A stretch of 13,981 nt of DNA from a virus. Its lineage: Duplodnaviria > Heunggongvirae > Uroviricota > Caudoviricetes. Position 1 is the first letter of the stretch. Each line of letters begins with the position of its first letter. Shown here one piece after another: positions 12,001 through 13,981 of this stretch. The stretch covers positions 1-13,981 of IMG/VR virus record IMGVR_UViG_2703718868_000002. One strand, written 5' to 3'. The position numbers are program-made.

Positions 12001-13981
12001 GCGATCAATAGTGCGTATATCGACATTAAAGATTTCAGCAAGCTTCTTTTTATTAACATTCATTCAGCAATTCCTTATCAAAAATCAGTTACGACATGAA
12101 ATGCCAAAAAAGACAGATTTTTCAGCGTTCTGATGTCGTTTCTTTCTTGATGATTATTTCTTTAAAAACAATAGGTTAACAACAAGAAGAACTGACATGC
12201 TTTTTCCCGAAAAATTTTCATAAATAGCGAAAACCCGCGAGGTCGCCGCCCCGTAACGGGTCCATATGCCGGAAAGGACCCGAGAAAATGATAATGGTTA
12301 TCAGTTGCAACAAATCCAGTTTCTTCCACCATCGCACCGGACAGGCGACTATGAGGGGACAACGCCGCGCTCCGTTAACGCGGTAAACCCCGGTGTGTAT
12401 CGTTTTTGATTATCCCCGCACACTCTCGCAGAGGAGTCTCCCTGTCGGGCTGCGGTCTCTGTTAATACGGGAATACGGCGACGATACGGCGCATCAGCAA
12501 AACTTATTTCAGGCACTGAGTGCGGATATATTCCTGCGCCCCTTCCAGCTGCTTCTGCATCATCATCAACCGCTCTCTGAGGGTGAAATAATCCCGTTCA
12601 ACTGTGTCTGCCAGTCGGGGGCCGGTTGCATTATCCACGCCGGAGGTGGTGGGGGCTTCACGCACGGAGCCTGGACAGGTGGCGTTGATCCGCAGGCGCT
12701 TACGACCAGCGGCAACATCAGCACGCAGAGTTTCATTTTCAGCTCTCGCATCGGCTAATTCCCTCGAGTATTTTGCATCGAGCGCAGCAACATCGCGCTG
12801 GCGCTGCTGCATATCAGTAATGGTTGCGTTTGCCAGCTCCAGCTCTCTGGCTTTTTTATCGCGCTGCTCTTTGTAGGTGATGGCGTTATCGCGGTAATGA
12901 TTCAGCCCCAGACTAAGCGCACCACAGGCCACCAGCAGGGCAATGATGACCACACACAGAACGCGGTTCATTTCACCACCAGCGTATCTGACCGATGAAA
13001 TAACCGGGGGCCATAATCACAAACACCAGCCAGATAAGGATGAACTTCCAGGTGGATAATTTTTCAGCCATCACTCAAATCTCCCGAATCAATTTGCTAA
13101 AATCAAACACACTTTCTCCTTTGACTTTTCCGGAGTCAGGAAACACGAAACCCCACCTGCTGCTAACAAACGGGTTTTTTACTTTTATTCACTTAGGTTT
13201 TGCCAGTTCGCAGGATTTCGTGTTATCCGTCCGCGTTGACCAACGTCATTTTTCAGCAAAATATTCTGCTTATCTGTCGATTCCCCAGCACGCCAGCGCG
13301 CTCTCCTGGTCACGACGGGATACCTGACCATAACAGTTATTTGAGCGAATACGGCAGTCTCTGCCACCGTCCTTAATCCACCAGCGAATCGCTTCACACG
13401 CTCCCCTGCGATCTCCTGCATTAATTCGTTTATAAAACGTCGACGTGAAACACTTACCCGGGCCAATGTTGTAAGGACAGAATGACGCAATACCCGCTTT
13501 CTGGGGTTCAGTCAGTGGCACTCTGATGTTTTTCTCCACCCATGCCAGCGCCTTATCCCGTTCAATGGCGTTAACCTGGTCGCATTTTTCCTTCGACAGC
13601 TTCATGCCAGGAATCACAGGATTACCATCCACCCGGGTGGCTCCACGGCAGATGGTCCAGATACCCACACCATCACGGTATGCCGTGGTGTGGTTACCTT
13701 CTTTTTCATCCAGAAACTGGTCGAGGATTTCAGGCGCAGAAGCCCCTGCGGCAATCAACGCCAGAACGGCAGCCGACAGGCCGTATTTGATTTTTGTGTT
13801 CATGGATATATTAAATATTCAGCCGCTGTCCCAGGCCCACTAAATACGCACTTTCAGATAAGTCAGTCCGGGATGAAGCCAGTAAGCCGGCACTTTTTTA
13901 AAGGGCGGATGATCAAAATCACGAAGAAGTGCCTCCCGCACAACTGAATCCTTGTCCGCACCACTGGCCAGCGCTTCAATC

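Follow-up and report, generated by a model that had tools for sequence, protein, structure and literature searches.

The open reading frame (ORF) that runs off the edge of the analysed DNA (a stretch of 13,981 nt, here called the window), next to the endolysin gene R, is the 3' end of a gene for a soluble, non-holin protein of 185 aa, here named X, and the holin gene S lies one gene further upstream. Judging from the sequences compared in this work, X is very probably a YdfR-related accessory gene, expressed late and placed between a normal pinholin gene and the gene of a SAR-type endolysin, which would be co-translated with the holin and be dispensable for lysis. The original prediction had offered three explanations for the lack of an adjacent holin, the first of which, a non-holin gene between holin and endolysin, proved correct; a rearrangement of the lysis cassette is refuted by the order S-X-R-Rz, which is kept. 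The cassette is intact and conventional, with its pinholin one gene further upstream and with nothing missing or rearranged. The implied premise that such an arrangement is unusual was wrong, since 62 of 74 related loci have a gene in the same slot; for this lineage it is an ordinary arrangement, of which the Qin prophage of K-12 and the Stx2-converting phage 86 are existing examples.

Completion of the gene upstream of the endolysin

At the end of the window the last 46 codons of X are read as IEALASGADKDSVVREALLRDFDHPPFKKVPAYWLHPGLTYLKVRI, and the start of the gene lies about 416 nt past the edge, the in-window part being the 3' quarter of the gene (Table 1). That a minus-strand ORF and no holin stands directly upstream of the endolysin was confirmed from both the window and its extension. 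The short gap between the two genes, which ends in ...TTAATATATCC-ATG, is real but measures 36 nt rather than the 37 nt first given, and the tail of about 46 residues described as hydrophilic is clearly not membrane-spanning, although with a GRAVY of -0.14 that description was slightly overstated.

Table 1. Positions of the lysis genes in the window and of related features in other records
Feature	Record	Coordinates	Strand	Remarks
Gene X, 3' end	window	13840-13981	minus	last 46 codons and TAG stop (13842-13840) of 185-aa protein WP_042969680.1
Gene X, start	extended window	~14397
Holin S	extended window	about 14401-14616
Spacer, X stop to R start	window	13804-13839	minus	36 nt; SD-less, AU-rich initiation region of endolysin
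Endolysin R	window	13270-13803	minus	177 aa; ATG at 13803; PF00959, phrog_7, PDB chain matches
R-Rz gap	window	12972-13269	minus	~298 nt
32-codon hydrophobic ORF	window	12973-13071	minus	TGA stop 1 nt before Rz ATG
Rz-type lysis protein (i-spanin)	window	12504-12971	minus	ORF and RefSeq 'lysis protein' WP_001380564.1 at matching position
Terminator-like hairpin in R-Rz gap	L001	8809-8829
TerB-family gene, DUF3927, iraM	L001	3227-4456		upstream of window; iraM on reverse strand
ORF Y	L003	2858-3172	minus
ORF Y	L004	3154-3468	minus
ORF Y	L086	4807-5124	minus
ORF Y	L091	436-759	minus
ORF Y	L092	585-902	minus
X homologue, Salmonella prophage	L086	4001-4801		between Q and holin
X homologue, Salmonella prophage	L088	4001-4918		between Q and holin
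X homologue, Salmonella prophage	L090	134-943		between Q and holin
Frameshifted YdfR-family pseudogene	L096 (NZ_CP048304.1)	1353-2243		in S-R slot

Extension of the upstream sequence by way of matching genomes, as had been proposed, located the complete 185-aa ORF, a PF04971 class II holin and Q. Over its last 782 nt the window shows 100% identity to two complete STEC genomes, NZ_CP129345.1 among them, and over its full length it shows 99.9% identity to NZ_CM143728.1, in which an identical X protein is encoded. Both matching records annotate in series a class II holin, the hypothetical protein corresponding to X, a lysozyme and a lysis protein. The order of genes in both begins with the Q antiterminator, a methyltransferase, three tRNAs, a TerB-family gene, DUF3927 and IraM (on the reverse strand), and continues with a nanS-p-like esterase (labelled SASA-family in the record L001 and DUF6645 in L085), DUF1378, DUF826, class II holin, X, lysozyme, lysis protein and terminase. 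The prophage is a stx-less relative of the lambdoid Stx phages which still carries the nanS-p-type esterase. In L001 the TerB-family gene, DUF3927 and iraM occupy the position past the three tRNA genes which we take to be the site of the stx genes in Stx phages.

The holin S, of 71 aa, is the next gene upstream of X and stops 3 nt ahead of its ATG. Its match to PF04971 ('Bacteriophage P21 holin S') has an E-value of 7.2e-33, and the protein opens with MYQMEK, giving a dual Met1/Met4 start. By its sequence S is a pinholin of the phage 21 type (PF04971, about 70 aa, two TMDs and dual start), for which the formation of pinholes is predicted. Downstream of X, the product of R matches the T4-lysozyme-like muramidases (PF00959, 5.9e-25), the PHROGs endolysin family phrog_7 and, from residue 12 onwards, the PDB chains 3HDE_A (3.3e-17) and 3HDF_A, both titled 'Lysozyme', as well as RrrD (4ZPU); entries 3HDE and 3HDF are presumably R of phage 21. 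The catalytic triad read from the translation, E35-8-D44-5-T50, has the E-8-D/C-5-T spacing, and the N-terminal segment YGLSAAVLALIAAGASAP is rich in Ala, Gly and Ser, its 19-residue Kyte-Doolittle mean (KD19) peaking at residue 9. R is consistent with a SAR endolysin, having a SAR-like N-terminal segment for which release from the membrane is predicted. A comparative study likewise judged the endolysins of Stx phages to be SAR endolysins (PMC8136144).

The last gene of the S-X-R-Rz cassette is Rz. The only ORF in the gap between R and Rz is one of 32 codons, hydrophobic, which is intact in 20 fetched related loci and unannotated in the RefSeq records, and which may encode a small membrane peptide translationally coupled to Rz. 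In the near-identical locus L001 the same gap holds a terminator-like hairpin, whose T-tail is a single base different from that of the window. It is in this gap that Stx2 phage 86 carries ant, a gene of annotated function and thus accessory cargo in a lysis cassette, if in a different slot from X; its presence there indicates that the lysis cassette of Stx-type phages tolerates inserted accessory genes.

The complete X protein has a mass of 21.4 kDa, a pI of 5.9 and a GRAVY of -0.64. A Kyte-Doolittle scan found no transmembrane segment anywhere in it, the highest KD19 of X being 0.76, whereas the holin reaches 1.70 and the N-terminus of the endolysin 1.78. No Pfam or NCBIfam model matches X, nor does any PADLOC model (PADLOC-DB 2.0, for defence), and no holin family was matched in Pfam or PHROGs. 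The idea that this ORF encodes a holin after all, one with a long tail in the cytoplasm and with its TMDs just past the window edge, has nothing beyond the position upstream of R in its favour and next to no chance of being right: X lacks both a hydrophobic segment and a holin profile match, and a genuine PF04971 holin is encoded directly upstream of it. At 45.7% the GC content of X is below that of S (55.1%) and R (52.6%), which fits a moron-like origin. Over the C-terminal region dN/dS is about 0.27 among 11 alleles, and intact copies of X are therefore under purifying selection.

A narrow, mosaic family related to YdfR

The only PHROGs families matched by X are of unknown function, foremost phrog_1085 (E = 8e-111), with X residues 1-185 corresponding to profile positions 117-296 of 296. 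The homology of X with DUF1327/'YdfR family' proteins of 268-296 aa is modular. Family members are built from an N-terminal DUF1327 (YdfR) domain that may be missing, a coiled-coil module some 60 residues long, a middle part that varies and a conserved C-terminal region; X aligns with residues from about 105 to 296 of the 287-296-aa members and is, by these alignments, their C-terminal two thirds without DUF1327. PF07041 (DUF1327) is matched neither by X nor by its 98% identical twin P0001, and is matched at 9e-41 by the long relatives (P0034 and others). No Pfam family is matched over the C-domain by any of 104 family members. Conservation in the family is highest in the block that lies within the window, which encodes most of it (RIGRCMGYLQVAAEIEALASGAD..VREALLRDF..PPFKK.P..W..PGLTYLK.RI), and six residues of the C-terminal domain are invariant (H103, G128, G132, Q135, P165 and K167).

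Database searches showed this family to be narrow and highly mosaic. An exhaustive HMMER search with P0001 as query over 1.84 billion representatives returned just 42 matches, all of them from the same family, while a profile search recovered 430 proteins, the named ones among the 120 listed all being from E. coli or Salmonella enterica. When a single genome per species was scanned, only three loci turned up, in Escherichia and Shigella. The sequence clusters which contain X hold hundreds of member sequences, and the C-domain is the part of X that is conserved out to Salmonella and beyond.

The structure of X was likewise predicted with P0001 as query. With 26 close E. coli homologues AF2 reached a pLDDT of 52.6 and the C-domain was unusable; with 104 sequences, Salmonella relatives included, the pLDDT rose to 78.9, with C-domain blocks at 76-95. 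The model comprises a helical hairpin (3-27, 31-60), a disordered linker (59-71) and an alpha/beta C-domain of about 110 residues with three short strands and four helices. The C-domain has no fold match, and in a profile search of PDB sequences with the 104 homologues the best E-value, 0.041, was not meaningful.

The closest described situation is that of the K-12 Qin prophage (essQ-ydfR-rrrQ-rzpQ), where a small soluble gene also stands between a class II holin and a lysozyme. Its product YdfR (DUF1327/PF07041) has its homologous counterpart in the N-terminal domain of the long X relatives (268-296 aa). Unlike X, YdfR is 103 aa long, consists essentially of DUF1327 alone and has a gene overlapping rrrQ by 4 nt; X is without DUF1327, aligns with YdfR at 19% identity and has the 36-nt SD-less spacer after it. 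Residues 1-72 of YdfR bind the catalytic half of RNase E, and YdfR co-purifies RNA (2026 study, PMC13232886); the RNase E-binding domain so reported is absent from X. Our literature search found no paper on the S-R slot gene; DUF1327 is mentioned once, and the only experimental work found on the family is that on YdfR and RNase E. The gp05 protein of Stx2 phage 86 (YP_794052.1, 'YdfR family protein', 268 aa) is also encoded between S and R, and its C-terminal 115 residues are 83.5% identical to X, but its N-terminal part is a DUF1327 domain instead of the coiled-coil module, and its gene is followed by a convergent ORF of 104 aa (gp06, here ORF Y).

ORF Y (about 104 aa; phrog_1853, a family of unknown function) is convergent and tail-to-tail with X homologues in Stx2 phage 86, in Stx2_12E129, in Salmonella Dublin and in the two most distant relatives found, and is absent from the window. 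The Y-bearing homologues come from E. coli, Salmonella and metagenome reads. Y has no Pfam match, and PADLOC matches for Y, for the relatives of X and for other slot ORFs were non-significant. Other small convergent ORFs occur in other variants of the slot, and these alternative ORFs gave nothing significant in Pfam or PADLOC. The ancestral unit looks like an X/Y cassette which landed in the late region, the window carrying a derivative without Y. In Salmonella prophages the X homologue is situated between Q and the holin instead of between S and R (Table 1), so linkage to the S-R junction is not a property of the family, which is linked to the late/lysis region and not to one junction. The Salmonella-type homologues adjoin HicAB or ParE toxin-antitoxin genes.

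The slot between S and R and the start of the endolysin

The state of the S-R slot was surveyed in 74 loci with both holin and endolysin, namely 71 IMG/VR loci whose holin is nearly identical, together with two Stx2 phages and the region of STEC1590. The slot is empty in 12 loci, where R starts 1-4 nt after the stop of S, and is occupied in the remaining loci by a DUF1327-only gene (33 loci), by an X-type gene as in the window (10), by the full-length form with DUF1327 and X (10), by an X-type or DUF1327/X-type gene with a convergent ORF Y (6), or by other combinations (3). The slot is more often filled than empty in this E. coli prophage lineage, K-12 Qin being the textbook case. X DNA is present in 885 of 5,426 complete E. 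coli genomes, roughly one in six, and hundreds of genomes have frameshifted or unannotated copies of the slot gene. Such copies being common, X is dispensable, at least in resident prophages; together with the 12 cassettes without a slot gene, they suggest that X would also be dispensable for lysis itself.

The frameshifted YdfR-family pseudogene of NZ_CP048304.1 (Table 1), a type seen in 5 of 12 sampled rows of complete E. coli genomes, has an X-like C-region which is 95% identical and unannotated. Large variants of the slot were also observed, with S-R gaps of 1307 nt in L062 and 1000 nt in L033. Among these variants is a protein of 161 aa in which the coiled-coil N-module known from X is joined to another, unrecognised C-terminal domain, and the slot of one locus holds a reverse ORF of 210 aa of an unrecognised family. 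The large variants are further evidence of the S-R slot as a hot spot of diversity.

The compact cassettes resemble that of phage 21 (S21/R21) in their PF04971 holin, in the same kind of endolysin and in the S-R-Rz logic, features which the cassette studied here shares with both. The original prediction held that SAR endolysins are normally paired with a pinholin encoded directly upstream, which is too strong, lyz of phage P1 presumably not being adjacent to its holin genes. A strong SD, GGGGAGAG, lies inside the 3' end of S. In the compact cassettes the ATG of R sits behind this SD, whereas in all loci with an occupied slot it serves the inserted gene, X being read here from GGGGAGAGTGAATA-ATG. 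The start of R is then preceded by ..ATAAATATCC-ATG or ..TAATATATCC-ATG, and the junction ATATCC-ATG, from which R starts in the window, is common to all occupied-slot loci. The leader of R in the window, ..GAATATTTAATATATCC-ATG, is AU-rich and, as had been noted, without an obvious Shine-Dalgarno sequence: its best duplex with the 16S 3' end amounts to -2.2 kcal/mol, compared with -11.5 for X, -8.1 for Rz and -7.4 for S. The same start has the lowest opening energy of five starts compared (6.3 vs 11.8-16.6 kcal/mol).

As the SD-less leader is common to all occupied-slot loci, the missing SD of R is a lineage-wide consequence of insertion. We infer from these leaders that initiation of R would be independent of an SD, on an unstructured AU-rich leader, and some reinitiation of R after X may take place in the version with the 36-nt spacer. 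No sigma-70-like promoter adjoins X, which is therefore expected on the late transcript together with S, and no Rfam element was found around X.

Readings of X and their meaning

The sequences compared show X as an accessory gene within a pinholin/SAR-endolysin cassette which is canonical in other respects. In the reading that we prefer, S, X, R and Rz would all be read from the Q-dependent late transcript; X would have acquired the strong SD within the 3' end of S that in compact cassettes presumably drives R, and would on that account be made together with the holin, while R would be initiated without an SD from its AU-rich, weakly structured leader. Points that weigh against this are that the low GC and mosaic family of X also fit a moron unrelated to lysis, and that the homologue in Salmonella lies between Q and the holin and many genomes have frameshifted copies of the slot gene. 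As to what the protein does, we would speculate, explicitly and with rather less than even confidence, that X is a late cytoplasmic binding or adaptor protein which acts on a cytoplasmic partner of host or phage. By analogy with the RNase E-binding N-domain of YdfR it may affect host RNA turnover, or else the timing of lysis. This guess has against it that neither experiment nor homology assigns a function to X, and that the link to RNase E concerns the very domain which X lacks. We do not think that X is a membrane lysis effector.

A tentative alternative, which we hold to be somewhat unlikely, makes X a moron unrelated to lysis, once paired with Y (as in defence, counter-defence or a toxin-immunity-like pair) and with the strongly expressed late region as its landing place. 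The GC content of X below that of its neighbours and the extreme mosaic structure of the family are in keeping with this, as are the tail-to-tail Y in several relatives, the convergent ORFs of other slot variants and the different positions of the cassette in E. coli and Salmonella. It must nevertheless be set against the lack of significant PADLOC matches for X or Y, against an expression which, with no promoter of its own, would be late only, and against the purifying selection on X even though Y is absent here.

It is unlikely that X is instead a dedicated regulator of lysis, that is, a cytoplasmic antiholin-like protein or a modulator of endolysin release which would tune the time of lysis by binding either the charged C-tail of S or the N-terminus of R in the cytoplasm. 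All the contexts recovered place X homologues 0-2 genes away from a class II holin (PF04971/PF16080) that precedes a PF00959 lysozyme. The ATG of X follows the stop of S by 3 nt and the SD of X lies inside S, a translational juxtaposition of the two genes, and an insertion that leaves R SD-less should change the S:R ratio. The 12 near-identical cassettes without X argue otherwise, as does phage 21, whose cassette works without it. The Salmonella homologue is moreover separated from S by a convergent gene and another ORF, X resembles no known antiholin, and the RNase E-binding domain in related family members points away from the membrane.

We give still less credit to the thought that the C-domain of X, together with its ancestral partner Y, forms an undescribed late module of lambdoid phages of enterobacteria that couples a cytoplasmic host target (such as RNase E and RNA turnover) to the timing of pinholin/SAR-endolysin lysis; were this true, the window would hold the stand-alone version of the effector, and the long forms would act through DUF1327. 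Rather improbable, too, is that X is a decaying deletion derivative of a 287-296-aa YdfR-family gene, deprived of its functional DUF1327 domain and kept only for the spacing of R or for read-through: its alignment to about residues 105-296 of the long forms, the damaged or unannotated slot genes of hundreds of genomes and the retention of only the other, N-terminal half by K-12 YdfR would agree with a relic, but the 185-aa ORF is intact, has a strong SD and a dN/dS of 0.27 over the C-region, belongs to clusters of hundreds of sequences and has a C-domain conserved to Salmonella and beyond.

The interest that remains in X as an inserted accessory gene is modest and lies in its uncharacterised, narrowly distributed domain and in the convergent partner Y. 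The S-R junction of cassettes of the phage 21/933W type is a hot spot for mosaic genes of the YdfR family, and once this slot is filled the strong ribosome-binding site serves the inserted gene and no longer the endolysin. For work on lysis timing and toxin release in Stx-type prophages this would mean that an extra late gene, predicted to be co-expressed with the holin, may have to be taken into account.
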